Positions 5,488 through 60,920 of a stretch of 64,000 bases of DNA are shown here, one piece after another. The position numbers and the translations under genes are program-made. Every line of letters begins with the position of its first letter. Position 1 is the stretch's first letter. Source of the stretch: an uncultured Peptoniphilus sp. (GTDB taxonomy: Bacteria; Bacillota; Clostridia; Tissierellales; Peptoniphilaceae); the NCBI RefSeq assembly GCF_946222045.1, contig NZ_CAMILN010000001.1, positions 46,892 through 110,891 of the forward strand. The letters are read 5' to 3'. The notes below the pieces were generated by a model. That model saw only the letters and a list, made by a program, of their open reading frames with translations, did not search any database and had not been told where the DNA came from.

Positions 5488-7284
5488 TTAATCCTTTATA
5501 ATTGTCCCATGATTATCTGGGTCATTTGTGTTTAAAATTTTTATAGTTATATTTTTCTTGGCAACGGGATTTATGGCATCTTCTTGATAAACTTGGGCTC
5601 CCTCCCCAATTATTTCCTTTAATTCCGTGTAGGAAAGCTTGTCAATAGTCTTGGCATCTGGGTCACTGTTGGGGTCTGATGTCATAATTCCATTTACGTC
5701 AGTCCAGTTCTCGTAGACTTTGGAGTCAAGGGCATAGGCAATTAGGCTGCCTGTATAATCGCTACCTCCCCTAGTGAAGGTCACAATATTTCCCTTCTCG
5801 TCGCTACCATAAAAGCCTGGAACAACTGCCTTTTTGTTTTCTCCAATGTGACTTTGGATGGCCCTCTTGGACTTTTCTATATCAACTTGTCCCCTTTCAT
5901 CAAAGATTATTAGGTCCTTGGCATCAATAAAGTCGTAGGTCAAGTATTTTGCAAGTAACTTGGCATTAAGGTATTCGCCCCTGGACACAATGAAGTCCTT
6001 GTCCCTGGACTCCTTTATCTCATCAAAAACAAATTTCAACTCATCATCCCAAAAGTCTTCAAGATCCAGGTCTTGAGCTATGGATAAAAATCTCTTTTTA
6101 ATTTTCTCTACTTGCTTGTCACGGCTTAGACTTTGGACTTCTAATTCCTCTTCAAGGGACTTGATAATCTCTCTGACCTCTTCAATCCTCAAATTTTTGT
6201 CAGAAAGAGAAATCAATTCGTCAGTAATCTTTGTGTCCTTTTTAAATCTTCTTCCCGGTGCAGAAACCACAATCACGTCCCTATCTTCCTTGGAAAAGAT
6301 AATTTTTTTCACCTTGGCAAATTGCCCTGCGTCCTTCAGGGAGCTGCCGCCAAATTTTGAAACTGACTTCCCCTCAATGCTATCAATGGCAAAGGGTGTT
6401 TCTTGGTAGACGCAGTAGTTGAGCCAGTTAGAGAAGAAGAGATTGCCTGCAGACCTCCACCTAATTTTTATGTCCTTCTTATGGTCGTTGTCCTCATAAT
6501 AATTTATTGGTGGACTGATTTTTTTGCCTTGAGAAAGATCCCTGATGTACTCATTGTGGAGGGTGTCTTTGTCATATTCCCAGTGGCCAAAATTAAAGAC
6601 AAAGCGGTTGTCCTTAGTTGTCACAAGGGAAACTCCAGTGTCAGGTCTTGCTGCAAGGACTTCAAGGTCTGAAAAGTCTTCAAAATCTTCAAGGTCAACG
6701 TAAGTGTGTCTTGATGTTGGGACCAAGAAGCTGTCATCAAATCCCTTGACAATCTTATTATCTTTTAGTTTGTCAAATTCAAAAACTCCAAAGATTTTCT
6801 CGTCGCTAAGCTTGTGCTCAATCTTGTAGTAGTGATATAGGGCCGCTTGGGCAGACCAACATATAAACATTGTGGAATAAACATTTTTCTTGGCAAATTC
6901 AAAAATTATCTTTAGTTCGTCCCAATATTTTATCTTTTCATAGGCAAGGGTTTCAATAGGGGCCCCAGTAATTATCATGGCGTCGTACTTATTGTTTTTT
7001 ATATCGTCATAAGTCTTGTAAAAAGACTTCAACCTCTTGGCATCGGAGTTATTTGGATTGTAGGACTCCATCCTCACAAGGTCAATGTTAATTTGTAGGG
7101 CAGTGTTTGAAAGCATCCTCAAGAGTTGAAGTTCAGTTTCTTCCTTCTTGGGCATCAAGTTTACAATAGCAATGCTAAGGGGTCTTATGTCCTGCTTAAT
7201 GGCAGAGGAGTCCCTCATTGTAAAAATATTTTCTCTCTCTAAAACTTCTTCAACAATTAAATCTCTAGGTATTATTAATGGCAT
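5488..7284 (-). CDS. metA: Fusion protein: homoserine O-acyltransferase (MetA) N-terminal domain + aspartokinase catalytic domain lacking ACT regulatory domains
   Basis: Start moved to ATG at 7284 (MPLIIPRDLIVEE), which has RBS AAAGAGGAG upstream. The ORF-track start at 7425 would read through the T-box leader. The N-terminal ~300 aa carry MetA motifs (AIVNLMPKK, ITGAPIE, CWSAQAALYHYY). The C-terminal ~300 aa carry amino-acid-kinase motifs (KFGGSSL, VVSAPG, FTRGGSDYTGS, TDVNGIMTSDPN). The protein ends where aspartokinases normally continue into ACT domains. Confidence 0.75.
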   Translation of the reverse strand: MPLIIPRDLIVEEVLERENIFTMRDSSAIKQDIRPLSIAIVNLMPKKEETELQLLRMLSNTALQINIDLVRMESYNPNNSDAKRLKSFYKTYDDIKNNKYDAMIITGAPIETLAYEKIKYWDELKIIFEFAKKNVYSTMFICWSAQAALYHYYKIEHKLSDEKIFGVFEFDKLKDNKIVKGFDDSFLVPTSRHTYVDLEDFEDFSDLEVLAARPDTGVSLVTTKDNRFVFNFGHWEYDKDTLHNEYIRDLSQGKKISPPINYYEDNDHKKDIKIRWRSAGNLFFSNWLNYCVYQETPFAIDSIEGKSVSKFGGSSLKDAGQFAKVKKIIFSKEDRDVIVVSAPGRRFKKDTKITDELISLSDKNLRIEEVREIIKSLEEELEVQSLSRDKQVEKIKKRFLSIAQDLDLEDFWDDELKFVFDEIKESRDKDFIVSRGEYLNAKLLAKYLTYDFIDAKDLIIFDERGQVDIEKSKRAIQSHIGENKKAVVPGFYGSDEKGNIVTFTRGGSDYTGSLIAYALDSKVYENWTDVNGIMTSDPNSDPDAKTIDKLSYTELKEIIGEGAQVYQEDAINPVAKKNITIKILNTNDPDNHGTIIKD

Positions 7285-7948: not shown

Positions 7949-9499
7949 TTAAGCTTCCTTCTTAATTACATCGATTATAGAACCATCTCTGTATTCTACA
8001 ACTGCAACTACTTCGTCAGAGAATTCAACTTCTTCAGGTTTACCTGTAAGTTTTTCTGCCATTTCTTGTAGTTCTTTGATGTTCTTAAGTTCAATTCCAG
8101 CTTTTTCGAATTTTTCGATTAAGTCTTTTCTCTTTGGATTTACAGCAATACCGTAGTCAGTACAAATTACGTCTACAGCTTCGCCTGGTGTACAAACTGT
8201 TGTAACCTTGTCTTTGACAATTGGGTTTCTTGATCTTACAAGTGGTGCAAGTATAAGTGACATTTCTGCACCAGGTGCTGTATCTTGGTGACCACCAACT
8301 GCTTGGTTAATAACTCCGTCTGATCTTGTCATTACGTTTACGTTGAAGTCAGTGTCAACTTCAAGAGCTCCAAGTAATACAAAGTCTAGAGTGTTAACTG
8401 CAGGTGTTGGGTTGTTAGGGTTTGCATAAGAAGATGCAGTTTGTTCAAAGTGTTTTTTGTTTTCACGGATTGATCTTACTGCGTCAAGGTCAAAGGATTG
8501 TGTATCATAGATACCGTCGATAAGACCTTCTTCAAGCATTGTCACCATATAGCCAGTGATTCCACCAAGGGCCATTGATGCCTTGATGTCATCCTTCTTC
8601 ATTTCTTCACGAAGAAGTTTTGCAACTGCAAGAGTTGAACCTGCTGCTCCAGTTTGGAATCTAAAGCCGTCCTTGTAAAGTCCAGAAGCCTTGATTGCCT
8701 TAACTGCGTTGTTGGCAATTAATAGGTCACGAGGGTTGTCGTTAAACCTAATTGATCCAGAAACAATTCCCTTTGGATCTCCAATTGCGTCAACTTCTAC
8801 AACATAGTCAACATACATCATGCCAATTGAAGCAGGAATATTTGGGAATGGTACAAGGTTGTCTGTAATTGCAACTACACAGTCAGCGTACTGTGCATCA
8901 ACAATTGCATAGCCAAGTGATCCACAAGCTGCCTTTCCTTCTCTACCATTTATGTTTCCATATTCATCACATGCTGGTGCTGCTAAAAAGGCAACGTCAA
9001 TGTGAAGTTCCCCATCTTCAATTGCTCTTGCACGTCCACCGTGAGAACGGATAATGCAAGGTTTTTTAAGGATCCCTTGTGAAATTTTTTCTCCAAGTTC
9101 TCCTCTTAGTCCAGATGATTGAATTCCAGTTATTACACCTTGTTCAATTAGTGGGATTAACTTGTCGTGACATGGTGAAAGTGATGATGGAGCAAGAGTT
9201 AGGTCCTTGATTCCCATATCAGCAATAACTTGCATTACCATATTTACAACATAGTCACCATTTCTTAGGTGGTGGTGGAAGGAAATTGTCATTCCGTCCT
9301 TAAGTCCACTCTTCTTAACAGCTTCTTCAATAGAGCCTAGAAGTTTTTTCTCGTCCCTATTTCCGTATCTAATTTTTGGAGAAGCCTTTCTTTCAGTTCT
9401 AAGATATTTGCCTTCGCCTTTGAAAGGAACAAGTTCGCCAATGCCTTCAAGGGATTCAGGGATATCTCTTCCTACTGCGTTTTTATTATAGTTCATCAA
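7949..9499 (-). CDS. citF: Citrate lyase alpha subunit (citrate CoA-transferase)
   Basis: 516-aa protein. The family call rests on its length and its position immediately after citD and citE in the cluster; I did not verify a CitF-specific motif. Confidence 0.88.
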   Translation of the reverse strand: MMNYNKNAVGRDIPESLEGIGELVPFKGEGKYLRTERKASPKIRYGNRDEKKLLGSIEEAVKKSGLKDGMTISFHHHLRNGDYVVNMVMQVIADMGIKDLTLAPSSLSPCHDKLIPLIEQGVITGIQSSGLRGELGEKISQGILKKPCIIRSHGGRARAIEDGELHIDVAFLAAPACDEYGNINGREGKAACGSLGYAIVDAQYADCVVAITDNLVPFPNIPASIGMMYVDYVVEVDAIGDPKGIVSGSIRFNDNPRDLLIANNAVKAIKASGLYKDGFRFQTGAAGSTLAVAKLLREEMKKDDIKASMALGGITGYMVTMLEEGLIDGIYDTQSFDLDAVRSIRENKKHFEQTASSYANPNNPTPAVNTLDFVLLGALEVDTDFNVNVMTRSDGVINQAVGGHQDTAPGAEMSLILAPLVRSRNPIVKDKVTTVCTPGEAVDVICTDYGIAVNPKRKDLIEKFEKAGIELKNIKELQEMAEKLTGKPEEVEFSDEVVAVVEYRDGSIIDVIKKEA

Positions 9500-10385
9500 T
9501 ATCCTCCTTCTTTAGCACTCCACTTGCAACTGCAAGGTCTAGAACTCTTTGTGCACCAGCTATAACTGGATAGTCAACCATCTTGCCGTCAACTGTAATA
9601 ACTCCAGATCCTTTTCTTTCAGCTTCCTTAGAACCTGCAATAATACGAAGTGATTTCGTAATATCTTTTTCAGTTGGTGTATAAACTTCATTTACAACTG
9701 CAATTTGTTTAGGGTGGATAACAGATTTACCATCAAATCCTAAGTCCTTAATAAATTGAACTTCTTCCCTAAAAGCATCCATGTCATCAAGGTTTGTGTT
9801 AACTGTATCGAAGCAAGCAATGCCTGCGTTTCTTGCAGCTAAAACAATTTGACTTCTTGCTGCAAAAAGTTCCCAACCATGAGATGACCTTTGAGTCTTT
9901 AGGTTAGTAACATAGTCAGCTGCTCCAAGGGCAATACCCATCATTCTTGGTGATGCCTTTGCAATGTCAACTGCGTTAATAACTCCAGTTGGAGATTCAA
10001 TAGCTGCCATCATTAGAGTTCTACCTTGGCATCCCATTTCTTCTTCAACTTCAGTTATGATTTCATCTACATCAATAACATCTTGTGCAGTTTCTGACTT
10101 TGGTAGTCTAATTACATCTACCCCAGCCTTAACAACTGCCTTAATATCTTCACGTCCATAAGGTGTATCAAGGGCGTTGATTCTTACAACAACTTCAGTA
10201 TCTCCGTAGTCTAAAGTTTTTAGTGCATTGTAAACTAAAAATCTTGCCGCGTCTTTTTGATTTATACTCGTAGCATCTTCAAGGTCGATCATAATTGAAT
10301 CAGGACCATAGATGTGAGCATCAGTGATGTTTGCAGGGTTGTTACCTGGAAGAAACATCATTGTTCTTCTTAATCTCTCTTTCAA
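9486..10385 (-). CDS. citE: Citrate lyase beta subunit (citryl-CoA lyase)
   Basis: HpcH/HpaI aldolase-citrate lyase fold (MFLPGNNP...DSIMIDLEDA). TTG start. Overlaps citF. Confidence 0.88.
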   Translation of the reverse strand: MKERLRRTMMFLPGNNPANITDAHIYGPDSIMIDLEDATSINQKDAARFLVYNALKTLDYGDTEVVVRINALDTPYGREDIKAVVKAGVDVIRLPKSETAQDVIDVDEIITEVEEEMGCQGRTLMMAAIESPTGVINAVDIAKASPRMMGIALGAADYVTNLKTQRSSHGWELFAARSQIVLAARNAGIACFDTVNTNLDDMDAFREEVQFIKDLGFDGKSVIHPKQIAVVNEVYTPTEKDITKSLRIIAGSKEAERKGSGVITVDGKMVDYPVIAGAQRVLDLAVASGVLKKEDIDEL

Positions 10386-39525: not shown

Positions 39526-39615
39526 TATTTCTCTGATAATTAATTTGCACTTTTACTGTTCATGCAATAAAATGACTTTAAACTGGTACATTTTTGTAGA
39601 AAGTTAGGTGATATT

Positions 39616-40851
39616 ATGAGAACAGGAAAATTTTCAGAACTAACAGGATTATCAAAAGATACAATTTATTACTATATAGATAGAGGATTAATTTATCCTG
39701 ATAAAGTAAATAATCGCTACTCTTTTAATAAAAAGAACTTAGAGAATGTTGAAATCATAAAACTTTATCAAGATATGGATTTTTCTATTGATGAGATTAT
39801 TTCAATAATATCATTATGGAATTGGTCTAATAACACTGAAGAAAATATAAAAAATGAGCATTTAAATAGACTGTTAAAAAAAGAGCGTGAAATTGAAAAC
39901 GATATATCAAAGTTAGTTAGAAAAAAAGAATTATTAATCGATGAAATAAATAGAATCGATTGTAAAAACGAAGAGAATTTTAATAATATAGAAATCGGAT
40001 TTCCTGTTAAAAATATAGAGGTGCTATCCTGTCCACGTTGTAATAATCAATTTAGTATAAATAACGCATCAATGAATTCAAAATACATATTTAATGCTGA
40101 CTTAGAATGTTCCTGTGGACATAAATTAAAGATTAAAAATGGGATAGTTGTAACTGGTAATAAATATAAATCTTTTTATGATAAACCCGATATTAACCGC
40201 GATTTATACTTAGACATGCCTTCTATATATTATAAATCATTAAATATAATAGGAAATGAAATTTCTAAGTATTTAAATAGTTTAGAACTAGAAAATAAAA
40301 TAATAATGGAAACTAATATTAATGGATTTTCATTTCTTTATAATAATTTAAAATGCTTTAAAAATAATTTTACCATTATTTTGATTGATAAATACGAAGA
40401 GGTTCTATTGAATTATAAAAACCAGTTATCAAAAGTTTTAGAGAATCCAAATATAGTTTTTATTGCTGATGATTCTTTAGAATACCCAATAAAAAAAGAA
40501 GTTGTTGATGTAGTTATTTCACTTTTCAGCGGAAATGAACATCAGCTTTATAAGAAGGATAATTACTTTGAAAATATTTATAAATACATAAAAAACAATG
40601 GAAGTATTGTTGGTGCATATCAATCTTATGAACCTAATTCTAAATCAATTAAAAATTTAAAAATAAAATATCCTGAATCATCTGAAAGACTATATCTTAA
40701 AAATATTTTTTTAGATAATTTAAATAAATTTTTTAAACAAACTAAATCTGTTGACTTAGAGAAAGTTAATGCTTACTCTAATAAACATTCTTTCGAATGC
40801 CACGAAAAAGGAGATCTTATGACTCACACAATTTTCAAAGGAATAAAATAA
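39616..40851 (+). CDS. MerR-family HTH regulator fused to an RlmA-like Zn-ribbon + degenerate methyltransferase-fold domain (411 aa)
   Basis: N-terminal MerR HTH (FSELTGLSKDTIYYYIDRGLIYPD) and a coiled-coil linker. Then CPRCNNQF...CSCGHKLKIKNGIV, resembling the Zn-ribbon of 23S rRNA m1G methyltransferase RlmA. A Rossmann-like region follows in which the glycine-rich SAM loop is replaced (IIMETNINGFS). Extremely AT-rich codon usage. Confidence 0.5.
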   Translation: MRTGKFSELTGLSKDTIYYYIDRGLIYPDKVNNRYSFNKKNLENVEIIKLYQDMDFSIDEIISIISLWNWSNNTEENIKNEHLNRLLKKEREIENDISKLVRKKELLIDEINRIDCKNEENFNNIEIGFPVKNIEVLSCPRCNNQFSINNASMNSKYIFNADLECSCGHKLKIKNGIVVTGNKYKSFYDKPDINRDLYLDMPSIYYKSLNIIGNEISKYLNSLELENKIIMETNINGFSFLYNNLKCFKNNFTIILIDKYEEVLLNYKNQLSKVLENPNIVFIADDSLEYPIKKEVVDVVISLFSGNEHQLYKKDNYFENIYKYIKNNGSIVGAYQSYEPNSKSIKNLKIKYPESSERLYLKNIFLDNLNKFFKQTKSVDLEKVNAYSNKHSFECHEKGDLMTHTIFKGIK

Positions 40852-41010
40852 TATTGAGTCAGCTCCATGTTATTTAAAATTTTTAGGAATTTTAATATTA
40901 TCTATTCTAAAATATCATTTTCAAATAAAATAATATTTTTATCTATTGACCTTGAGCCAAGCCTTTGATTTATAATTTTATTACATTACAAAAGCAAAGG
41001 AGGAAAAGTT

Positions 41011-42372
41011 TTGAAAACGATTTATAACTTAATGATTGGTTTTGCCAATTGGATTTGGGGATGGCCTATGCTGATTTTTTTAGCTGCTTCTGGTATTTAT
41101 CTAGGTATTCAAATCAGAGGAATTCAATTCACAAGATTTAAATATATAATGAAAAATACCATTGGGTCAATGAAAAAGTCCGGATCAGCAGGTGGTGTCT
41201 CAGGGTTTCAAGCTGTTTCTGCAGCTCTTGCAGCAACTTTAGGCACTGGCAATATCGTTGGTATCGGTATTGCAATAGCTTACGGTGGTCCAGGTGCTAT
41301 ATTCTGGATGTGGATGGTTGGATTAATTGCTATGGGAATAAAATTTTCTGAAGTTGTTGCTTCTGTAAAATTCAGGGAACGCCGTCCAGATGGGGAGTAT
41401 AGTGCTGGTCCTTATAACTACATTTCAAAAGGTATAAAGAGTCAATCACTCGCTAGATTTTTATCTATTGGATATGTAATAAGCTTAATAGTAGTTTTAC
41501 TAATTGCTGCTGGGGTCCATACAGGAGCAATCACCGATGCAATGGAACATATTCATGTATCCAGATTTATATCTACAACTATAGCAATTGTATTTGTAGT
41601 TTTTATAGTTTATGGCGGTGTAAGTAGAATTGTGAATTTTACTGAAAAACTAGTTCCAATAATGGCAACTATATACATAATAGCTTGTATTATTATGATT
41701 ATTATACATATAGATAATTTTATACCATCTCTATTGTCTATATTCAAATATGCTTTTACTGGCCACTCTGCTGTAGGTGGTTTTGCTGGATCTGCTGCTG
41801 CTATGACAATTCGTTGGGGAGTAGCAAGAGGAATGTATTCTAATGACTCAGGTAATGGAATTCAATCTATAGTGCACGGACAGGCCGACGTACAACATGC
41901 TGTAGAACAAGGAATTTGGGGCGTTTTTGAGGTTTTCTTTAGCACCATAGTAGTATGTACTTTCTCAGCTCTCGCCATTTTAAGTTCTGGTTCATGGACT
42001 AAATATGGTATAGAAGATTCGGGTGTATTAGCTCAACGAGCTTTTTCAGATTCACTCGGAACTTTTGGTACAGTGCTCATTACTTTAGCAATAGTTTTAT
42101 TTGCCTTTTCAACAGTGCTAAGCTTTGCTTTCTTTATAGAAAATCAGACTACAAGTTTATTTGGTAAAAAAGTAGGCAAATTTGTTCAACTAATATTCTT
42201 CATATTTATGGGAATTGGAGGAGTATTTGGTGTAGCTAAACTACTTCAAATTGCAGATTTCGGAAATGCTTTCATAATTTTAATTAATATGATAGCTGTA
42301 TTAATGTTAGGTAAGACTATAGGAAAAGAAACAAAAGAATTTTTTGATAAAATTGATAGAGGTGAATTATGA
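41011..42372 (+). CDS. Alanine/glycine:cation symporter (AGCS) family transporter
   Basis: TTG start with AAAGGAGGAAAAG RBS. AGCS-type N-terminal region WPMLIFLAASGIYLGIQIRGIQF and GTGNIVGIG motif. Confidence 0.8.
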   Translation: MKTIYNLMIGFANWIWGWPMLIFLAASGIYLGIQIRGIQFTRFKYIMKNTIGSMKKSGSAGGVSGFQAVSAALAATLGTGNIVGIGIAIAYGGPGAIFWMWMVGLIAMGIKFSEVVASVKFRERRPDGEYSAGPYNYISKGIKSQSLARFLSIGYVISLIVVLLIAAGVHTGAITDAMEHIHVSRFISTTIAIVFVVFIVYGGVSRIVNFTEKLVPIMATIYIIACIIMIIIHIDNFIPSLLSIFKYAFTGHSAVGGFAGSAAAMTIRWGVARGMYSNDSGNGIQSIVHGQADVQHAVEQGIWGVFEVFFSTIVVCTFSALAILSSGSWTKYGIEDSGVLAQRAFSDSLGTFGTVLITLAIVLFAFSTVLSFAFFIENQTTSLFGKKVGKFVQLIFFIFMGIGGVFGVAKLLQIADFGNAFIILINMIAVLMLGKTIGKETKEFFDKIDRGEL

Positions 42373-43109
42373 AACCGATAATAGGAATAACAACAAATTA
42401 TGTTGACGATGATAAATTTTTTATGGACTTAGGTCTTGGTGCTTTAGGACAATCTTATTCAGCAGTAGCAATAGATTATTTTAATGCAATCAAAGAAGCA
42501 GGTGGTATACCAATAATTATTGCTCCAACATATGATACCGATTATCTTGACTCAGTATTAAATCTTTGTAACGGAATTTTGATAACAGGGGGTAATGATG
42601 TAAATCCATTACTTTATAACAAAAACAATAACTCAAAAGTTGGAAGAGTTCTTAAAATTCGAGATAACTCAGATTTTTATTTAACTGAAAAATGTATAGA
42701 AAAAGATATTCCACTTCTAGGTATTTGTAGAGGTATACAAGTTTTAAATGTTGTTCAAGGTGGGACTTTATACAGACATATTGATACAAACAAGCTCTTG
42801 GATCATTCTGCTGTAAATAGTTATAAATCTATTATATCTCACTTTATAGATGTAGAAAAAGATTCATTTCTATATGAAGCGTTTAAAACAACTAGGATTG
42901 GAGTTAACTCTTTTCATCATCAAGGAATAGAGAAGCTTGGTGCGAATCTTAAGTCCATTGCCAAAAGTGAAGATGGGCTTTGCGAATCAGTCCAGATGGA
43001 AAATAAAAAATTCATTGTTGCTACACAGTTCCATCCTGAAATGATGTTTGAAGATGAAAAACTTTACTTAGAAATCTTTAAACTTTTTGTTAAAAAATGT
43101 AAAAACTAA
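42369..43109 (+). CDS. Class-I glutamine amidotransferase-like peptidase C26 (gamma-glutamyl-GABA hydrolase/PuuD-like)
   Basis: Catalytic Cys in GICRGIQVLN and His in FHPE. Translationally coupled to the AGCS gene. Confidence 0.72.
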   Translation: MKPIIGITTNYVDDDKFFMDLGLGALGQSYSAVAIDYFNAIKEAGGIPIIIAPTYDTDYLDSVLNLCNGILITGGNDVNPLLYNKNNNSKVGRVLKIRDNSDFYLTEKCIEKDIPLLGICRGIQVLNVVQGGTLYRHIDTNKLLDHSAVNSYKSIISHFIDVEKDSFLYEAFKTTRIGVNSFHHQGIEKLGANLKSIAKSEDGLCESVQMENKKFIVATQFHPEMMFEDEKLYLEIFKLFVKKCKN

Positions 43110-43114
43110 TTTAC

Positions 43115-43160
43115 TAAAAAACCTAACCTATTTAAATTTTAAATGGTTAGGTTTTTTCTT
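43115..43160. terminator. Bidirectional terminator between the C26 gene and relE
   Basis: Long imperfect hairpin AACCTAACCTATTTAAAT...ATTTAAATGGTTAGGTT flanked by A-run and T-run. Confidence 0.5.
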
Positions 43161-43396
43161 TTTATATTAAGTACTATTAACTTGTCGTCATCAATTTTTG
43201 CAAGGAGCCTATAGGCACCAATCCTATACCTCCAGATGCCTTTGAAGTTGCCAATTAGGGCCTTGCCATAAAATCTTGGATCCTGACAAGCAATGAGATT
43301 GCCTTCCATCCAATTTTTTATAAGTTTTTGGGATTGTCTATCAAGTTTTTTAAAGGACTTGTCAAACTTTTTAGTAGTTCTTACTTGGTAGGTCAT
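43139..43396 (-). CDS. relE: Type II toxin, RelE/ParE superfamily
   Basis: 85 aa, GIWRYRIGAYRLLAKIDDDKLIVLNIKRKN C-terminal core typical of RelE/ParE toxins. ATGA overlap with the upstream antitoxin. Confidence 0.8.
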   Translation of the reverse strand: MTYQVRTTKKFDKSFKKLDRQSQKLIKNWMEGNLIACQDPRFYGKALIGNFKGIWRYRIGAYRLLAKIDDDKLIVLNIKRKNLTI

Positions 43397-43617
43397 AGGT
43401 CAAGCTCTTTAAATAAATCTTCAATAGGTCTTGTTTCAACCTCGCCCCTAGCTTCTCTTTCAAGAAAGTCTTCAGCCACCTTCATGTCGAACTCATCTTC
43501 CAGCTTCTCTTCCATCAACCTCTTAAAAAGAGTAGAAAGAGGTTCCCCCATAAGATCAGCATAAGCAGTAAAGGCTCTCTCCTCTTCAGCGTTAAGTCTT
43601 ACAGATACAGTCTTCAT
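43393..43617 (-). CDS. relB: RHH-type antitoxin (RelB/DinJ/CopG-like)
   Basis: MKTVSVRLNAEEERAF ribbon-helix-helix N-terminus. Start at ATG 43617 with GAGGTGA 6 nt upstream; the track start 43665 is less likely. Confidence 0.65.
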   Translation of the reverse strand: MKTVSVRLNAEEERAFTAYADLMGEPLSTLFKRLMEEKLEDEFDMKVAEDFLEREARGEVETRPIEDLFKELDL

Positions 43618-43674
43618 ATCCATCACCTCTAAGGCAATTGTATTACATTGTGTTACATAAATCAATGAGGAGCT

Positions 43675-45654
43675 TTATTTTTCTAAAACTATTTTTGTAT
43701 AAATTTTTTCTGTGAATTTGTATATTACGAGATAAAAAATTATATAAATAAGAAATACAAAAATCATTGATTTAATAAATAATTTTGTATTCATAAGTCC
43801 TATTAGCATTAAAAATTTTTGCAAAACAGGAAGGGCAAAGGATGTGTGAATGAAACAGAAAACTATTGGCAAAAATAAAAGCCATGCCATTTGTTTTCTT
43901 ATAATTTTCTTACCATCAACTTCATCCAGTCCAAGCTTTCTTAAAATTTTAAATCTTTCTACGTCTTCATAGGCTTCTGTGAGAAATTTATAGTATATGG
44001 CAAGTCCCATTGTTATTAAAAATGCAAAGGAAAGAATTATGCCAACGAAAAATATTACTCCATAGTCACTTAAAAACTCCTCCTTTGTTTGCTGTCTGTC
44101 TATTATTGTGAGTTTTTGATTTAGATTTACTTTAATGTCCTCCATGTGTTCATTAAGTAAATTATTAAAGTCTTCTGGCAAGTTTCCCTTTATCAAACTT
44201 GTTACATTTGGTCTTACCTTAGAGGTGTTCCCTTTGTAATTTAGTTTCTCACAAATTTTATTTGCAGTTTCGTAATCTTTTGCTAATATTTTATTTTTTT
44301 CAAAAATTGTCTGCACACTTTCCAAGGGAATATCTATTGTTTCATTGGATACTTGCCTTGCACCGAATCCCAAATCCTTTATAAATTCCTCATTATTGTC
44401 TTCTTTAAAATAAATTAAATCCTTGCCTTTAAAGTCTAATTTGGTGTCAGGACTATAAATTATGTCCAGTGAAATTATGTCATTTTTTAAATTTGCACCA
44501 TTCAATTCTCCATTTTTCATTACCCTTAGCTTATTCTTGTCTCTAATAAGCGGAATGGACCATTCATAAGTTGTAGTGACCTCTCCCTCAACCTTATTGG
44601 CAGCTAATAAGCTCCTGATATTATCTCTATACTTATCTAAATTTTTTATACTTAATGACTCTGCATCAGTCTTTATGGCATAGGGTGCTGGAAATAATCT
44701 ATTAGTTACATCTCCTATGCCTGCATAGAGACTTATCCCTGATGTTAAAACTATTGTAAAAGCTGTGGATAGTATTGCAATATTTGCAAGAGATCTAGAA
44801 TTGTTATTTACTCTGTACAAAAGCCCTGACACAGATAGAAAATTTCCTTTCTTGTAATATAGGGCCTTATTGTTTTTTAATAGTTCAAGAAATAGAGTCA
44901 CTATGGTTGAAAAAGCAAAATAAGTTCCAATTATTACTAAAGTCGCCGCAATAAAAAATTTAAAAAAAGCTTGCACTGGATTTTTTGTAGTTAAACTTAT
45001 GGCATAGCCTCCTGCAATAAAAATTATTCCCAGCAAGGCAATTAATTTTGTAAATTTATTTTTCCTATCTCCTGCTTTGGATTCATTGACCAAAGCGATT
45101 GGAGAATAATTTCTCATCTTAATAATCTGAATTACAAATACAAAAATCAATATTGCAATAAATATTAAATCTACAATTGCTACAGCCAAAAAATTATTAA
45201 AAAATCCACCCTCAAAAATATTTATGGAATTATTTGTCAGCATCAAAAAAATTCCAAGAGATAATTTGTATAAAGCAAGGCTAAAAATACTTGCTGTTAG
45301 TATAGAAAAAATAATAATATAAATTATTTCCCAAAATAAAATTATTCTCAGATGTGTTTTTTCAAGTCCAAGTATTAAGTAAAGTCCTTGCTCCTTTAAC
45401 TTTCTCTTTTGAATAAAAGAATAGACAGAAGAAAGCATTATAAGCGAAAAAATTGATAAAACTATGACTCCATAAAATAGAATGATTTTCATTGATTCCG
45501 TTCCCTTTGCACCTGCAAGAGACTTATCTAAAACAAGGCTTAAGCAAATTGAGCTTAATACAATAAGAAAAATTATTGTTCCAATAAATGGCATAAAAAC
45601 TTTTTTATTTCTCTTAATTCCAGAAAGGGCAAGTCGTGAGTAAAGTGATTTCAT
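43675..45654 (-). CDS. BceB-type ABC transporter permease (FtsX-like, 10 TM with large extracellular domain)
   Basis: Start at ATG 45654 (MKSLYSRLALSGIKRNKK, RBS AAAGGAG). 4+large loop+4+2 TM arrangement typical of BceB/VraG. Confidence 0.8.
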   Translation of the reverse strand: MKSLYSRLALSGIKRNKKVFMPFIGTIIFLIVLSSICLSLVLDKSLAGAKGTESMKIILFYGVIVLSIFSLIMLSSVYSFIQKRKLKEQGLYLILGLEKTHLRIILFWEIIYIIIFSILTASIFSLALYKLSLGIFLMLTNNSINIFEGGFFNNFLAVAIVDLIFIAILIFVFVIQIIKMRNYSPIALVNESKAGDRKNKFTKLIALLGIIFIAGGYAISLTTKNPVQAFFKFFIAATLVIIGTYFAFSTIVTLFLELLKNNKALYYKKGNFLSVSGLLYRVNNNSRSLANIAILSTAFTIVLTSGISLYAGIGDVTNRLFPAPYAIKTDAESLSIKNLDKYRDNIRSLLAANKVEGEVTTTYEWSIPLIRDKNKLRVMKNGELNGANLKNDIISLDIIYSPDTKLDFKGKDLIYFKEDNNEEFIKDLGFGARQVSNETIDIPLESVQTIFEKNKILAKDYETANKICEKLNYKGNTSKVRPNVTSLIKGNLPEDFNNLLNEHMEDIKVNLNQKLTIIDRQQTKEEFLSDYGVIFFVGIILSFAFLITMGLAIYYKFLTEAYEDVERFKILRKLGLDEVDGKKIIRKQMAWLLFLPIVFCFIHTSFALPVLQKFLMLIGLMNTKLFIKSMIFVFLIYIIFYLVIYKFTEKIYTKIVLEK

Positions 45655-45658
45655 TTTC

Positions 45659-46405
45659 TCAACTCCTTTGTAACATCTGCATTGTGTCTGCAATCTTCTT
45701 TTGCATATCAAGGGAAGTCCTCTCGCCCCTATAGATTTGATGATAAATTTCTCCATCCTTTATAAATAAAACTCTCTTCGCCTCTGATGCAGCCATGATA
45801 GAATGAGTTACCATAAGTATAGTCTCCCTATCTTGGTTTAAGTCTTTAAAAACCTTTAAAAGTTCTCTTGTGCTATTGCTATCAAGAGCTCCCGTTGGTT
45901 CATCAGCAAGTAAAATTTTTGGGTCACTTATAAGTGCTCTCGCAATTGCAGTCCTCTGCTTTTGCCCTCCACTTATTTCGTAGGGATACTTATTTAATAG
46001 ATCCGATACATTTAACTTTTTTGCAGTTTTTAATAATTTTTCTTCCATAACAGAAATTTTTTCATCGGACAATACTAGGGGCAATAAAATATTTTCTTTA
46101 ACAGTGAAGTTATCAAGAAGATTAAAATCTTGAAAGACAAATCCCAAATTTTCTCTTCTAAACTTTGCCATTTTGCTGTCCTTTATTTCTTGTAAATCTT
46201 TGCCCATTAAAATTACTTTTCCAGAAGTTGGCCTGTCAAGTAAAGCCAAAATATTTAATAAAGTTGTCTTTCCACTTCCAGACTCTCCCATTATGGCAAT
46301 ATACTCTCCTGCTTCAACAGTAAAATTAATTGACTTTAGAGCCTCAAGGTCATTTTTCCCAAAGCGACTTCTGTATATCTTTTTTATATTTTGAACTTCT
46401 AACAT
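45659..46405 (-). CDS. BceA-type ABC transporter ATP-binding protein
   Basis: Walker A GESGSGKTT, signature ISGGQKQR, Walker B ILLADEPT. Confidence 0.88.
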   Translation of the reverse strand: MLEVQNIKKIYRSRFGKNDLEALKSINFTVEAGEYIAIMGESGSGKTTLLNILALLDRPTSGKVILMGKDLQEIKDSKMAKFRRENLGFVFQDFNLLDNFTVKENILLPLVLSDEKISVMEEKLLKTAKKLNVSDLLNKYPYEISGGQKQRTAIARALISDPKILLADEPTGALDSNSTRELLKVFKDLNQDRETILMVTHSIMAASEAKRVLFIKDGEIYHQIYRGERTSLDMQKKIADTMQMLQRS

Positions 46406-46429
46406 CTTCCATCTCTTTCATAAATACTC

Positions 46430-47689
46430 TTAATCATTAACAGCAATTGGCTTTGCATAATAAACAAAAATCATTGCGTCATATAAATCTTTAGGTACTT
46501 CCTTTACCCTATAAGACCTTGGCATGAATTTCATAAGTGGAGAATATCCCTCGCCTAGACTTACCATGTTGATTTCTTTATTTATAAGGTCAAAAGTTTC
46601 CCCATCTTTAACTTTTGTAAAATCTAAATAATATTTTCCCTTAAATTTTCTGGCACTGTAGGCTAAGGGATCAGCAGATACAAAGGCATGGTTTGACCTC
46701 TTATTATCTGGTCCAGCCTCATTTATGTTTACAATTCCCTTATAAAAGTCTGTGCCAATAATAAAATATTTTTCTCCAAATATTTTCTTTAAGTGAGAAC
46801 CCATTGGCTCATAAAATTTTCCACTTTTTGCGATGTGACCATTGTGTCCAGAGATTAAAAGCATCTTATTTCCCTTTGCCTTTTCAAAATCACTTATCCA
46901 CTTAACATTCTCAGCCATAAGCACATCTCTAACATTATTTACTTTTACATAATCATTAAAATCTAATTCGTAATACTTAACACTATCCAAGACATTTGTA
47001 AGAGCTCTTGAAATAAGCCTTGCAGAGTTAGAAGATAGGCTGTCGACATGAGCTTTTATTTCTAACAACAAATCTTTCTTATCTTTTATCTGTGAAATCT
47101 TAAATTTTTCATCCTTAATAAAAGAAAATTCTTTTTCCAAGTCTCTTTCTTGTAAAATATTATTTTCCTTGCAATAATCTAAAATTAACTCCATAGATTT
47201 TTCTGGATTTTGCATGTCAAATCCGTAAAAAGAAAGTTTGTCCTCATCCTTTGCTTTTTGATTGTAGTCAAACATATAATTTATAAGGTCATTCATGTTC
47301 TTTGTGTGATAAATATTAAAAGAAAAAACTCTTGAAATATTTTCATCTCTCTTGTTTCCGTGAATGTAATTATTGATTATCATTCCTTCGCCAAAATCAG
47401 CTTCAATGGCAAAGCTCTTTAAATTATTTTTTTCAACTAAGGTCTTTAAAACTTCTAACTTTAAATCTTGAAAATCAGAATTTCCGTGAGTCCCTTCCCC
47501 AAGTCCAACAACTTCTATATTGTCATCTAAATTTATTTGGCTTACACCTTTTCCATAGTCTTCTATATCTGAAATATTTTTCCTTGCGCTTAACTTTGGA
47601 AGGTTAATCCACAAAAAATCTCCAATCCCTATAAGAATAATAAGGGATACTAAAAAAATTAAAATTCCTTTGAATATTTTCTTTATCAT
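46430..47689 (-). CDS. Erythromycin-esterase (Ere) family protein with N-terminal signal/anchor (419 aa)
   Basis: VVGLGEGTHGNSDFQDLKLEVLKTLVEKNNLKSFAIEADFGEGMIINNYIHG closely follows the Ere family N-terminal block as I recall it from EreB (ALGENSH...FAFE...EGQIINNWIHG). N-terminal hydrophobic segment MIKKIFKGILIFLVSLIILIGIG. Confidence 0.6.
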   Translation of the reverse strand: MIKKIFKGILIFLVSLIILIGIGDFLWINLPKLSARKNISDIEDYGKGVSQINLDDNIEVVGLGEGTHGNSDFQDLKLEVLKTLVEKNNLKSFAIEADFGEGMIINNYIHGNKRDENISRVFSFNIYHTKNMNDLINYMFDYNQKAKDEDKLSFYGFDMQNPEKSMELILDYCKENNILQERDLEKEFSFIKDEKFKISQIKDKKDLLLEIKAHVDSLSSNSARLISRALTNVLDSVKYYELDFNDYVKVNNVRDVLMAENVKWISDFEKAKGNKMLLISGHNGHIAKSGKFYEPMGSHLKKIFGEKYFIIGTDFYKGIVNINEAGPDNKRSNHAFVSADPLAYSARKFKGKYYLDFTKVKDGETFDLINKEINMVSLGEGYSPLMKFMPRSYRVKEVPKDLYDAMIFVYYAKPIAVND

Positions 47690-47807
47690 TTTCTCACCTC
47701 TTACTACATTATAAATTGTATAAAAAAATAAATCCTTTTATTTACATAACAAATAGAGCTTTAATGTGACATTTTTGTAAGATATAAAAAAAAGAGTGCT
47801 AAACACT

Positions 47808-48773
47808 CTAATCCAAAATATTTTTTAAATTTATAAACATCTTTGTGCCAACCTTTTGCTCTGACTCACACCTCAATGTCACTCTTAAAGACTTCCCAAT
47901 ATTCTTTGAGAGATTTAGTCCCAGTCCCGTTGACTTTTTCTCCAACCTACCGTTGTAACCAGTGTATCCTGCATCAAAAATTCTCGGCAAATCTTCTGGC
48001 ATTATTCCAATTCCATTATCTTCAATTACAAGTTCATTTTTCTCTAAATAAATTGCAATCCTTCCATTATGCGTGTACTTGATTGCATTAGAAATAATTT
48101 GTTCTAATAAAAAAGAAAACCACTTGGCATCAGTTAAAATTATTTTCTTAGTTTCAAAAAAGTCTACCTTATTATTTTTTCCAATAAACTGAATCGAATA
48201 TTTCCTAATTACTCCCCTAATAATTTCATCCAAACTGTATTTGCTAAAGACATAGTCTGTGCTATCTGCATTCATCCTTGCATAGCCTAAAATATTTCCC
48301 ACATACTCTTCGATCTCAAAAATTTCTTTCTCGCAATCTATTTTGTTTATTTCATCTTTTTTGAGTAAAAGTTTTAATGCAAATATTGGGGATTTTATTT
48401 GATGAGTCCAAATAGTTAAGTAGTTTTTTACATCTGCTTTTTTCTTTTCTCCAATCTCTTTAACTCTTCTATTTTCTTCTACACTTTTATAAAGAGCCTT
48501 TGATAATGGAGACTCATAAAGTTCTAATATTTTTTCGTAGTCTTTTCTATTTAAGAGATCTATTTCTTTTCTGTAATTCTGATCCCTTATGGAGTAAAGA
48601 AAAATCATATAAATAAAAAATAAAAATAGATATAAAAAAGCTATGTAAGTTGACTTATCTCTATCAAATTCAAAAATTAAATAAGTTCCCAGGATATAAA
48701 AAAATATGAAAAGTCCAAGAATTAATGTGAACTTTTCTCTCTTTAAAAAACTTTTAATTGGCAGGTGGGACAT
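47808..48773 (-). CDS. BceS-type intramembrane-sensing histidine kinase
   Basis: Two TM with a ~9-aa external loop. H-box TIWTHQIKSP and the ATP-binding G-box sequence GLGLNLSKNIG. Confidence 0.8.
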   Translation of the reverse strand: MSHLPIKSFLKREKFTLILGLFIFFYILGTYLIFEFDRDKSTYIAFLYLFLFFIYMIFLYSIRDQNYRKEIDLLNRKDYEKILELYESPLSKALYKSVEENRRVKEIGEKKKADVKNYLTIWTHQIKSPIFALKLLLKKDEINKIDCEKEIFEIEEYVGNILGYARMNADSTDYVFSKYSLDEIIRGVIRKYSIQFIGKNNKVDFFETKKIILTDAKWFSFLLEQIISNAIKYTHNGRIAIYLEKNELVIEDNGIGIMPEDLPRIFDAGYTGYNGRLEKKSTGLGLNLSKNIGKSLRVTLRCESEQKVGTKMFINLKNILD

Positions 48774-49443
48774 AATACCCTACTCCTTTCTTAGTCTTTA
48801 TTAAGTCAAAAATATTTATATCTTCTAGCTTTTTTCTCAGACGCATTACATTTACTGTTAAGGTGTTGTCGTCAATATAAGAGTCAGTTTGCCAAATTTT
48901 ATCAATAATTTCATCTCTATTAACAACTTTACCTGGCTTTTCCAAGAGAATTTCTAAAATTTTAAATTCATTTTTCGTGAGTTCTATTTCTTTGTTTTCT
49001 CTTGATATAATCATCTTGTCGCAGTCAAGGCTTATGTCTTTATAAAAGATATTTCTTGTCTCAATATATTCGTAAGCTCTTCTAAGCAAGGCCCTTATTT
49101 TTATTTGTAATAGATCTAGTTCAAAGGGCTTAGTCAAATAATCATCTGCTCCAAGATCCATTGCCATTATCAAATTTAAATTTTCATCGGCAGCTGAAAT
49201 AAATAAAATTGGAACCTTAGAGTTTTTCCTAATAATTTTGCACCAATGATAGCCATTGTAAAAGGGAAGAGTCACATCCATTAAAACTAAATCAGGATGA
49301 AAGTTTTTAAATTCATCAAAAATATTTTGAAAGTCCTCTGCAATTTTTATCTCATAGTCCCAAAACTCCAGGTGTCTTTTAATTTCTTCTGCAATTACCT
49401 TGTCATCTTCTACTAAAAAAATCTTCCATTTTTTCTTTTCCAT
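48754..49443 (-). CDS. OmpR-family response regulator
   Basis: Receiver DD..D motif (FLVEDD...LVLMDVTLP) plus winged-helix C-terminus. Confidence 0.88.
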   Translation of the reverse strand: MEKKKWKIFLVEDDKVIAEEIKRHLEFWDYEIKIAEDFQNIFDEFKNFHPDLVLMDVTLPFYNGYHWCKIIRKNSKVPILFISAADENLNLIMAMDLGADDYLTKPFELDLLQIKIRALLRRAYEYIETRNIFYKDISLDCDKMIISRENKEIELTKNEFKILEILLEKPGKVVNRDEIIDKIWQTDSYIDDNTLTVNVMRLRKKLEDINIFDLIKTKKGVGYYVPPAN

Positions 49444-49502
49444 ATCTTAATAACCTACTCTTTTAACTAAATTTTACTTGACATCATTATATAAACAAAA
49501 GG

Positions 49503-49535
49503 CAAAAAAATAAAGACTCCCCTATGGAAGTCTTT
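49503..49535 (-). terminator. Terminator of pta
   Basis: AAAGACTTCC...GGGAGTCTTT hairpin with T-run on the minus strand. Confidence 0.55.
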
Positions 49536-49554
49536 AAGTCTATCTTATTATTTA

Positions 49555-59312: not shown

Positions 59313-59840
59313 TTAAACTTCGATTTTACCGTAGTTTCCATCTTTTCTCTTGTAGACAATAGAAACTCCATCAGTATCTGCATCTAAGAAAACAAAGAAA
59401 TTGTGGTTTAGAAGATCCATTTGTAGGATTGCTTCTTCTTCGTCCATTGGGTTAAGTTCGAAGTTCTTTCTCTTTACAATTTTGTGTTCTGGCTCTTCCT
59501 TTGGTGGTTCTTTATCAAAAAGTTCGTCAAATCTAATTGTTTCGTTGTTTTGATATCTTCTCTTTAATTTAGTCTTGTGTTTTCTAATTTGTCTAGCAAG
59601 TGCATCCACAGCGTTGTCCATTGAAGAGTACATGTCGTCTGTAGTTTCTTCTGCCCTAATAATTGTCTTTGGTAAAAATATTGTAGCTTCAACAGTTTGT
59701 TCATCTTTTATCGTAGAGAAAACAAGCCTTGTTTCAACTTCCTCAGAAAAATATTTATCTAGCCTGGAGAATTTTTTTTCTGCAATTTCCTTCAAAGATT
59801 CTGTAAGTTCAATGTTTTTTCCAACAAAGTTCAATAACAT
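59313..59840 (-). CDS. hpf: Ribosome hibernation promoting factor, long form
   Basis: Start at ATG 59840 (MLLNFVGKNIELT; AAGGAGA 9 nt upstream) rather than the GTG at 59849. C-terminal dimerisation domain present (178 aa class). Confidence 0.85.
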   Translation of the reverse strand: MLLNFVGKNIELTESLKEIAEKKFSRLDKYFSEEVETRLVFSTIKDEQTVEATIFLPKTIIRAEETTDDMYSSMDNAVDALARQIRKHKTKLKRRYQNNETIRFDELFDKEPPKEEPEHKIVKRKNFELNPMDEEEAILQMDLLNHNFFVFLDADTDGVSIVYKRKDGNYGKIEV

Positions 59841-60011
59841 AAATGTCACTCTCCTTTTTTCTTTACTTAATATTTACCCAAGAATTTACAAATATATCAT
59901 TTTATTTAATTAACATTATAAACCCATGAAATGTACATTTAAAACTATTCTTGATATAATTAGCATAAATAAATGTAAGAATAATTTTGATATTTTTAAG
60001 GTTGTGATCTT

Positions 60012-60920
60012 ATGGCAATAAAAAATAAAATCGACTATAAGTATAGGATTGGGATGCGTACCTTTAAGACAGCCCTTGCAGTTGTCATTGGCCTCTACAT
60101 CTCCTACCTCTTGGACCTAGACTCAGCAATATTTGTATCCATAGCTGCAGTCTCAACAATGAAACCCTCGATGTCCGAATCACTCCAAGACTTTAAGAAG
60201 AGGATTTTTACCTGCGTATTTGGAGTAATGGTGGGATACCTCTTTTCTAAAGTATCTGTAAATGAATACCTGGAGCCCCTAATAGCAGGCCTTGGCATCC
60301 TCCTTACAATTTACATCTTAGTTGTTTTTAAAATGAAGAACATGACCCAGCTTTCTTGCATAGTCTTTGTGGCAAGTTTTTGCTCCAACTCAGATAAATT
60401 TTACTACGCAACAAACCGTATCATTGGTACCCTTATTGGAATTTTTGTTGGCGTCTTGGTAAATTATTTTATCTCATCTCCCAATGTTTGGGAAGATTTT
60501 ATAAGGGCTGCCAGTAGCTGCTACAGGTCTAGCAACCTTGTCATAAGGCAAGTCCTTTCAGGAGAAAAAGTGGACTTAAGTGAATTTAATAAAAATCTAG
60601 CAAGTACCACAAAACTCTACAAACTTTTGGAGAAGGAAGCCGACACTCCCTTCCAATACAAGTACAACAAAATCTCTCGCGAGAAAAAAATTATGTCCCT
60701 CATAGAAAGCATATCAGTTAGGCTTGAAGTGGTGGAGAATATGGATATACACAAATTTAGCCAGGAGGTCTCTCAAGAAGCCCTAAAAAGATACGACCTA
60801 GAAGAAGAGCCCACACAAGACTTAGGTGTGGAAGACAGGGTCTACAACTATCACATTGAATATATTTTAAAATACATGGACCAACTTAATGAAGAAATAG
60901 AAAACATAAGGGTGAAATAA
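60012..60920 (+). CDS. Aromatic acid exporter (ArAE/FUSC-like) family membrane protein
   Basis: N-terminal RIGMRTFKTALAVVIGLYIS pattern typical of YgaE-like ArAE proteins. 302 aa. Confidence 0.65.
   Translation: MAIKNKIDYKYRIGMRTFKTALAVVIGLYISYLLDLDSAIFVSIAAVSTMKPSMSESLQDFKKRIFTCVFGVMVGYLFSKVSVNEYLEPLIAGLGILLTIYILVVFKMKNMTQLSCIVFVASFCSNSDKFYYATNRIIGTLIGIFVGVLVNYFISSPNVWEDFIRAASSCYRSSNLVIRQVLSGEKVDLSEFNKNLASTTKLYKLLEKEADTPFQYKYNKISREKKIMSLIESISVRLEVVENMDIHKFSQEVSQEALKRYDLEEEPTQDLGVEDRVYNYHIEYILKYMDQLNEEIENIRVK

Follow-up and report, generated by a model that had tools for sequence, protein, structure and literature searches.

A predicted outward-facing Ere-family hydrolase in a Bce-type module of Peptoniphilus is a candidate peptide-antibiotic-inactivating enzyme

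The stretch of DNA analysed here (64,000 nucleotides of contig NZ_CAMILN010000001.1 from an uncultured Peptoniphilus sp., hereafter the window) carries on its minus strand five co-oriented open reading frames (ORFs), running from 49443 to 43675, that encode an OmpR-type response regulator, a histidine kinase, an Ere-family protein, an ABC ATPase and a permease (Table 1). A first-pass annotation, made from the sequence without database searches, had read this order as a BceRS/BceAB-type peptide-antibiotic module with an embedded, exported Ere-family hydrolase, and coordinates and Pfam matches bear out all five genes. By hydropathy the kinase has two transmembrane (TM) helices (residues 15-33 and 44-62) with an intervening loop of ~10 amino acids (aa) and no sensor domain; its sole match below 1e-10 among all sequences of the Protein Data Bank (PDB) was BceS (8g3a, 1e-26), and its best NCBIfam model was SapS (181 bits, under that model's cut-off). 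The permease is predicted by the same means to have 10 TM helices and a loop of ~225 aa (residues ~308-532) between TM7 and TM8, and against all PDB sequences it matched only PsdB (8e-26) and BceB (2e-16), with a weak Pfam match to FtsX (22.7 bits, just below the cut-off of 25.5). The best PDB match of the response regulator was NsrR (5DCL/5DCM; 6e-56) at 40% identity, a level at which the two appear to be paralogues. With permease, ATPase, kinase, OmpR-type regulator and the regulator box described below all in place, the array is a Bce-type module, as first proposed. Close homologues (93-95% identity) lie in Peptoniphilus harei and relatives. The bceR-like and bceS-like genes overlap by 20 nucleotides (nt), and the bceB-like frame is open from 45756, overlapping bceA by ~100 nt; a start at M35 (45654), 4 nt past the bceA stop codon, is favoured, given that near-identical loci have a gene-caller product of 659 aa.

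The Ere-family assignment of the third protein, the central point of the first-pass annotation, stood up to profile search, structure prediction and inspection of the active site. Its match to PF05139 (E = 2.7e-42; 146 bits against a cut-off of 26.4) is nearly full-length, aligning residues 85-409 with profile positions 1-355 of 358, and a confident AlphaFold2 model (pLDDT 89, pTM 0.87) comprises a helix at residues 2-35 followed by the two-lobe Ere domain. In an alignment of 16 homologues (42-75% identity), G-L-G-E-x-x-H-G, E96/D98, R254-D255, G-H-N-G-H and G-E-G-Y were invariant. The catalytic residues of EreC, established by published mutagenesis and structure work (PMC7979712), are E47, H50, E78, R261 and H289, which correspond by profile alignment to E65, H68, E96, R254 and H282; all five are invariant in 87 of 87 aligned relatives. 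Scores against the NCBIfam models of EreB (68 bits, cut-off 750) and EreD (40 bits, cut-off 800) were low, and the closest structures in Foldseek were BcR135/136 (TM-scores 0.70-0.74, E 1e-22), followed by EreC (0.61-0.63, E 3e-15), a ranking repeated at the sequence level (E about 1e-32 at ~20% identity for BcR135/136 versus 5e-7 for EreC). The 419-aa protein is thus predicted to be a catalytically competent member of the Ere fold and not a macrolide esterase.

The N-terminal signal or anchor proposed earlier was recovered as a single TM helix by hydropathy (residues ~5-27), in keeping with the helix of the model. An N-terminal hydrophobic anchor is present in 84 of the 87 relatives, and L026 and L055, two of the three exceptions, carry a lipoprotein signal peptide; therefore the whole subfamily is expected to act outside the cytoplasmic membrane, and the enzyme looks outward-facing, membrane-tethered and active. 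A motif in or near the anchor (D24/W27/P31, D-x-x-W-x-x-x-P) is conserved in the main Bce-linked clade and was considered as a contact with BceB or BceS. It was rejected as clade-specific rather than specific to Bce linkage, since it occurs at loci without Bce genes (L005, L018 and L019) and is missing from Bce-linked ones (L026, L055 and L084).

The first-pass annotation had placed ere inside a single unit with the Bce genes. It does directly precede bceA, at a gap of 24 nt, with no terminator predicted from ere up to the end of bceB, but a terminator and a promoter separate it from bceRS. The hairpin that follows bceS has counterparts with altered stem bases in L010, L011 and L016, loci in which the TATAAT hexamer also recurs at a matching position. 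Between the two lies a Bce-type response-regulator box, TTACAAAAATGTCA, which has a single exact match in the 64 kb of the window, where 0.46 matches would be expected even with one mismatch allowed. With its flanks (ATCTTACAAAAATGTCAC) it agrees at all specified positions but the last with AnnTTACnAnnnnGTnAG, the published consensus of promoters under Bce-like regulators (PMC10858260). A TGTAA half-site past the box is found at comparable distance in L010, L011, L012, L013, L017 and L084, and a GAGGTG ribosome-binding site lies between TATAAT and ere. The -35 region is poor, as expected if the promoter is activator-dependent, and a generic sigma-70 scan was uninformative (31 sites versus 31.4 expected), so the promoter call rests on the conserved box, the -10 element and the terminator. 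Because the terminator after bceS is followed by the box and TATAAT and then by the short ere-bceA gap, ere would head an inducible ere-bceA-bceB operon, and the locus would have the standard Bce layout, in which bceRS, with a promoter and terminator of its own, forms one unit and the transporter genes another that is induced separately. A second box-like site with one mismatch, TAACATAAATGTCA (59835-59848, plus strand), lies within the 5' end of an hpf-like ORF and 164 nt 5' of an ORF for a 302-aa membrane protein (60012-60920); it was discarded as a regulator site, such a count being within chance expectation.

Table 1. Genes and predicted control elements of the Ere-containing Bce-type module, in the direction of transcription (positions in the window)
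Feature	Position	Strand	Basis or remark
Terminator-like hairpin after the upstream pta gene	49511..49536	-	11-bp stem, then T-run; upstream boundary
bceR-like OmpR-family response regulator, 229 aa	48754..49443	-	Pfam Response_reg and Trans_reg_C
bceS-like intramembrane-sensing histidine kinase, 321 aa	47808..48773	-	Pfam HATPase_c
Intrinsic terminator-like hairpin and T-run directly 3' of the bceS stop	47783..47809	-	dG -8.5 kcal/mol, z = -3.5
Bce-type response-regulator box TTACAAAAATGTCA, inverted repeat	47767..47780	-	Sequence match; predicted
TGTAA half-site, possible secondary regulator site	47742..47746	-	Sequence, ~20 nt past the main box; putative function
Candidate -10 hexamer TATAAT of the ere-bceAB promoter	47708..47713	-	Read from sequence
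Ere-family (PF05139) hydrolase, 419 aa	46430..47689	-	Pfam, fold model, catalytic residues
bceA-like ABC ATPase, 248 aa	45659..46405	-	Pfam ABC_tran 1.6e-37
bceB-like permease, 659 aa from M35	43675..45654	-	Topology; PDB sequence matches

To place the locus among its relatives, one genome per GTDB species was scanned, which gave 80 Ere-like loci that were annotated by tblastn and iterated profiles. A high-scoring BceB-type permease lay within +/-9 kb of ere in 10 of the 80, and in all 10 permease and ere shared one co-oriented array, which is why the adjacency is not due to chance. Gene order varied: RS-ere-AB, as in the window, in P. faecalis, P. ovalis and P. senegalensis; RS-AB-ere in Peptostreptococcus porci, Anaerococcus hydrogenalis and an Acetatifactor metagenome-assembled genome (MAG); ere-AB-RS in Streptococcus ovis and S. 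henryi; AB-ere-RS in L055; and AB-ere in L026. Additional metagenome and isolate contigs contributed S. varani (ere-AB-RS), one RS...AB-ere contig and one ere-AB contig. The linkage recurs in Peptoniphilus, Anaerococcus, Peptostreptococcus, Streptococcus, Acetatifactor and other Clostridia. In a neighbour-joining tree most linked loci fell into one clade, the ancestor of which was probably Bce-linked, with L026/L055 and L084 in separate clades; the linkage occurs in at least three Ere clades and in five gene orders. A tblastn search of a plasmid collection returned only relatives at <=32% identity, none of them in a Bce context.

The regulator box precedes the transporter operon in 11 other loci and follows the change in gene order, standing 5' of ere where ere comes first (L010, L011, L016, L013, L001, L004, L014 and L015) and 5' of bceA where ere comes after bceB (L002, L012 and L084). 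In the four streptococcal-type loci (L001, L004, L014 and L015) it lies 320-380 nt upstream of ere, and the interval holds two small ORFs (33-42 aa; 120-290 nt upstream of ere), each predicted to encode a single TM helix (e.g. MSNLDFYSFLTILSLIIIGLISLSVWYWSGRRP...; L001:6756-6987). These leader ORFs had no Pfam match and were not found in the S. agalactiae nsr leader. At a Butyrivibrio MAG locus (L013:8780-9000), in which ere is followed by a response regulator and kinase and then by the contig end, translation of the DNA just 5' of the box gives the Walker-A region of an ABC ATPase (…LKQGTVTALVGESGS), which looks like a rearrangement scar.

Canonical modules of this type had been described in the first-pass annotation as consisting of the two-component system and the ABC pair only, a view that needs correcting in the light of the nsr-nsrFP-nsrRK cluster of S. 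agalactiae, a Bce-type operon with a built-in, single-TM-anchored S41 protease that cuts nisin (PMC5786555). The response regulators of three streptococcal Ere loci (S. varani, S. ovis and S. henryi) share 71-73% identity with NsrR, and a gene-by-gene comparison of S. varani ere-A-B-R-S with S. agalactiae nsr-nsrF-nsrP-nsrR-nsrK gave identities of 86% for A, 45% for B, 72% for R and 52% for S. Identities in that same range were obtained for the enzyme-free A-B-R-S operons of S. ratti and S. gallolyticus, and the modules of S. chenjunshii and S. suis are likewise without an enzyme gene. The closest relatives of the S. varani permease were enzyme-free A-B-R-S operons only, the nsr operon being reached via NsrR. 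Judged by these identities, this is one orthologous module with an S41 protease, an Ere-fold hydrolase or nothing at its 5' end. NSR and the Ere-like protein are unrelated in sequence, and each carries an N-terminal TM anchor. Because the A, B, R and S genes are orthologous and the enzyme lies at the 5' end in both, Ere occupies the NSR slot, and the Ere-like protein would be a functional analogue of NSR, for which this equivalence of slot is the strongest argument.

Linkage of the enzyme to the module is not strict: near-identical copies of its gene stand alone or travel on a mobile element. DNA comparison showed that P. genitalis and P. gorbachii keep the flanking synteny of the window and keep ere while missing window positions 49485-47733 (bceRS, terminator and box) and the bceAB segment; in P. 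genitalis, ere directly follows the pta terminator and has its own TATAAT. The junctions (L008:3860-5260 and L009:8955-10262, against window 49486/47732 and 46416/43665) place the upstream breakpoint in ~29 nt that resemble both the bceR and the ere promoter regions, so that ere may have come under the constitutive bceR promoter as a result of the deletion. P. genitalis and P. gorbachii have different Bce-bearing relatives as their neighbours in the tree, and bceRS and bceAB may have been lost twice, or the loss may have spread by recombination. Beyond these deletions, a 91%-identical copy of ere (from a 90%-identity cluster of 193 sequences) is cargo of a mobilisable element that encodes a MobA/MobL relaxase, a DUF3801 protein, a replication-organiser protein and a large serine recombinase, and the same ere-carrying segment occurs in a scaffold of Anaerococcus lactolyticus ATCC 51172. 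Aligned base by base, the captured piece extends from the ere ribosome-binding site through the ere-bceA spacer into the first ~30 nt of bceA, a remnant indicating that the cargo was cut out of a Bce module. The cargo (L091:4442-6900; also L092 and L007:300-1800) is flanked by a 13-bp direct repeat, AACCATAATAACA (4881 and 6361), outside which lies a duplicated segment of ~400 nt (4442-4855 and 6437-6900; 91-100% identical) containing an ORF of 57 aa; on its 3' side the bceA remnant is followed by a hairpin. This structure suggests that the lone ere is a cassette-like insertion.

All stand-alone copies of ere are intact, which argues that the enzyme is useful without the transporter. Their pairwise ratio of nonsynonymous to synonymous substitution rates (dN/dS) is 0.09-0.15, a measure in which time spent alone is inseparable from time spent in a module and which shows only that these copies are not decaying. 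NSR, too, is reportedly useful without its transporter, going by the title of Khosa et al. 2013. To judge from these copies, ere behaves like a self-sufficient resistance gene. In Bce-linked loci, ere is likewise intact beside a BceB-type permease split into two ORFs in A. hydrogenalis (L017:7009-8998) and beside a kinase in two pieces of 62 and 266 aa in a P. harei-like metagenome contig (L089:3916-4883), a hint that ere is less prone to decay than the Bce genes.

On balance we favour a reading, drawn by analogy with NSR, in which the Ere-like protein faces outward, is induced through BceR and hydrolytically inactivates the antibiotic handled by the BceAB-type transporter. A cell-wall-active peptide antibiotic would load BceAB and lead BceS to phosphorylate BceR; BceR would bind the TTACAAAAATGTCA box, and transporter and Ere-fold enzyme would be switched on together. 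The transporter would free the target in the lipid II cycle from the drug, and the enzyme, held on the outer membrane face by its N-terminal helix and retaining the Glu-His pair and the further Glu, Arg and His, would hydrolyse and thereby inactivate the released antibiotic, the same role as that of the S41 protease NSR in S. agalactiae. The first-pass proposal of combined sensing, efflux and enzymatic inactivation fits this context of sensor, transporter and enzyme, but its efflux component is outdated, target protection having been described for BceAB-type transporters (PMC7038271).

Candidate substrates are a lantibiotic, another peptide that binds lipid II or undecaprenyl pyrophosphate, or a lactone-closed lipodepsipeptide of the ramoplanin/enduracidin type. 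Proteases occur within the wider Tiki/TraB/Ere superfamily, and enduracidin elicits a response from PsdRS-AB. The first-pass annotation had suggested that the target may be an ester- or lactone-containing (depsi)peptide or a macrolide, whereas Psd and Nsr, the module's nearest relatives of characterised function, handle lantibiotics. Several points weigh against the inactivating hydrolase. Lantibiotics and bacitracin, the usual substrates of Psd, Nsr and Bce systems, have no ester bond, and the characterised Ere-family enzymes are esterases; therefore peptide-bond hydrolysis would be new for the family, or the substrate would be a depsipeptide. Furthermore, ~55 of the 80 related species loci are without any Bce or two-component neighbour, and ere survives the loss of bceRS and bceAB (L008 and L009), pointing to a function that is independent of the transporter and could be unrelated to it. 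A broader proposal, which we regard as possible and advance tentatively, is that the Bce-linked Ere clade constitutes a new extracellular enzyme class directed against peptide antibiotics, inactivating a lantibiotic, bacitracin-like or lipodepsipeptide drug by cleavage and interchangeable with NSR in Nsr/Bce operons. Its gene would already be circulating by itself in Peptoniphilus and Anaerococcus, carried by a mobilisable element, and current resistance-gene databases would be blind to it.

The enzyme might instead act on the cell's own surface, stripping ester-linked groups from, for example, peptidoglycan, teichoic acids, polysaccharide or aminoacyl-phosphatidylglycerol and so altering antibiotic binding within a Bce-controlled stress response. 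Its tethering at the membrane surface would suit such a task; the Bce-like regulators GraRS and ApsRS also govern dlt and mprF, genes for surface modification (PMC11009047; PMC10858260), the closest structures, BcR135/136, are general esterases annotated 'succinoglycan biosynthesis', and the Ere homologue ybfO of B. subtilis belongs to the sigma-W envelope-stress regulon (PMC4105308). We nevertheless consider envelope remodelling unlikely, in that losing D-alanyl or lysyl esters would raise sensitivity to cationic peptides, a housekeeping-type enzyme would be an improbable sole cargo of a mobilisable element, and the slot belongs to a drug-degrading protease in the orthologous operons. A true macrolide or macrolactone esterase beside, or wired into, a Bce module would account for the PF05139 membership, the complete Ere catalytic set and the mobilisation of the gene alone, as is seen for classical resistance genes. 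This reading appears somewhat less probable again: the scores are far under the EreB and EreD cut-offs, the protein is much closer by sequence and structure to BcR135/136 than to EreC, and its catalytic domain is predicted to be extracytoplasmic, unlike that of EreA-D, and the regulator box belongs to a system that senses cell-wall peptide antibiotics. Moreover, the closer relative BcR136 is without macrolide esterase activity (PMC6109786).

Two further readings deny the enzyme a catalytic or a functional part in the module. As a non-catalytic accessory or signalling subunit of BceAB-BceS that tunes sensing, the protein would resemble GraX or VraH; Bce modules often include such proteins, which are poorly understood (PMC11009047), and the conserved anchor motif of the main Bce-linked clade could be taken as a sign of it. 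That motif tracks one clade rather than Bce linkage, however, and neither the invariance of the catalytic residues in all 87 relatives nor purifying selection on ere where bceRS and bceAB are missing would be expected of a subunit of this kind, which makes the reading very improbable. Chance or purely syntenic adjacency, with no functional link, was already disfavoured and is hardly credible. Most Ere-like genes of the wider family do not lie beside Bce genes, and ere is able to stand alone, but against this stand the five gene orders, spread over several genera and at least three clades of Ere, in which the genes always share one orientation, are separated by short gaps and stand behind a common box, as well as the direct placement in the array of every one of the 10 high-scoring BceB matches within +/-9 kb.

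The surroundings of the module and some of its relatives show further features. GC content falls to 0.30-0.31 at approximately 40-50 kb of the window, versus 0.34-0.38 in the flanks, and the segment at 39527-43139, which encodes a MerR-like/methyltransferase fusion, a sodium:alanine-type symporter and a glutamine amidotransferase, is missing or replaced in every related Peptoniphilus locus compared; the Bce module is therefore part of a variable island (39527-49500). A DUF6290 antitoxin/ParE toxin pair (43139-43665, minus strand) lies 9-50 nt 3' of bceB with no terminator predicted in between. P. genitalis has kept this pair despite the loss of bceAB, and an S. suis Bce operon (L097:6562-7057) carries a pair of the same families between bceB and bceR, its toxin being 41% and its antitoxin 28% identical to that of the window. 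A Y-family DNA polymerase gene (IMS domain) and a small downstream ORF lie between bceS and bceA in one Ere-bearing module, and in the S. chenjunshii module a Y-family polymerase gene and a small ORF lie directly 3' of bceS (loci L002:2154-4070, L003:212-2128 and L095:8704-10469 for the two arrangements together). In a separate Ere clade from Oscillospiraceae and Blautia (L020, L027, L030, L037, L048, L064, L070 and L072; ere at about 9000-10200), ere is followed within 33-273 nt by genes for an OmpR-type response regulator and for a kinase of ~445 aa that has HAMP and HisKA domains and so differs from the Bce type. This arrangement appears to be another compact unit of Ere and sensor, adjoined in L030 by a tyrosine integrase.

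The first-pass suspicion that an Ere protein in a Bce module had not been described agrees with the full-text literature and PADLOC models searched. No link of Ere-family proteins to Bce modules was found in 8 million full texts, in which subscription journals are thinly covered; the texts retrieved were reviews in which the two subjects appear separately. Esterases and hydrolases go unmentioned both in a survey of the BceAB family from 2025 and in a review of Bce modules from 2024, the latter calling accessory proteins 'largely unexplored' (PMC11009047). Neither the Ere-like protein nor BceB is covered by a PADLOC model, the others gave only generic domain matches there, and the curated EreB and EreD resistance-gene models of NCBI do not capture the window protein. 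Because it sits in the slot of the nisin-cutting protease in related streptococcal clusters, the window protein is probably, by analogy, an unrecognised antibiotic-inactivating enzyme. Structures of non-macrolide Ere members have been available since 2007, and the genomic context of box, NSR slot and outward anchor narrows the search for a natural substrate to cell-wall-active peptide antibiotics. If the preferred reading is correct, there would be a second, unrelated enzymatic solution beside NSR, Bce-type operons would possess an exchangeable 'inactivating enzyme' slot, and anaerobes of skin, wound and urogenital sites would harbour a mobile resistance determinant that antimicrobial-resistance annotation labels merely 'erythromycin esterase family protein'.

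With BceRS-BceAB and PsdRS-PsdAB of B. subtilis the module shares the 10-TM permease with a large ectodomain between TM7 and TM8, the intramembrane-sensing kinase, the OmpR-type response regulator, the terminator between two-component and transporter genes, and the inverted-repeat box 5' of the transporter operon; those systems have four genes, whereas the window has a fifth, an enzyme gene predicted to head the inducible operon. Extra genes are found in other Bce-type modules, among them YxeA/YsaD, which are accessory proteins of such modules, GraX (PMC11009047) and VraH (named in the references of PMC5786555), but these are small or regulatory and have no hydrolase active site. EreA, EreB, EreC and EreD have the Pfam family, the two-lobe fold and the five catalytic residues in common with the window protein. 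They are cytoplasmic, whereas the window protein is predicted to be membrane-anchored, extracytoplasmic and under a peptide-antibiotic sensor box. Its closest solved structures are those of B. cereus BcR135 and BcR136 (PDB 2RAD/3B55 and 2QGM), the latter an esterase on p-nitrophenyl butyrate with no macrolide esterase activity (PMC6109786); neither is reported to lie in a Bce context. The nearest precedent is the nsr operon, which shares the BceAB-type transporter, the BceRS-type two-component system and a single-TM-anchored degradative enzyme heading the transporter operon; it differs in that NSR is an S41 serine protease, in place of an Ere fold with a His/Glu-activated water, and the window module, with its RS-ere-AB order, is more distant from it. 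The combination of transporter, two-component system and tethered inactivating enzyme is thus already known from nsr, and what is new, as far as can be told, is the enzyme family found in a Bce module, its occurrence in several genera, the slot in which enzymes can be exchanged and the gene's escape to a mobile element.

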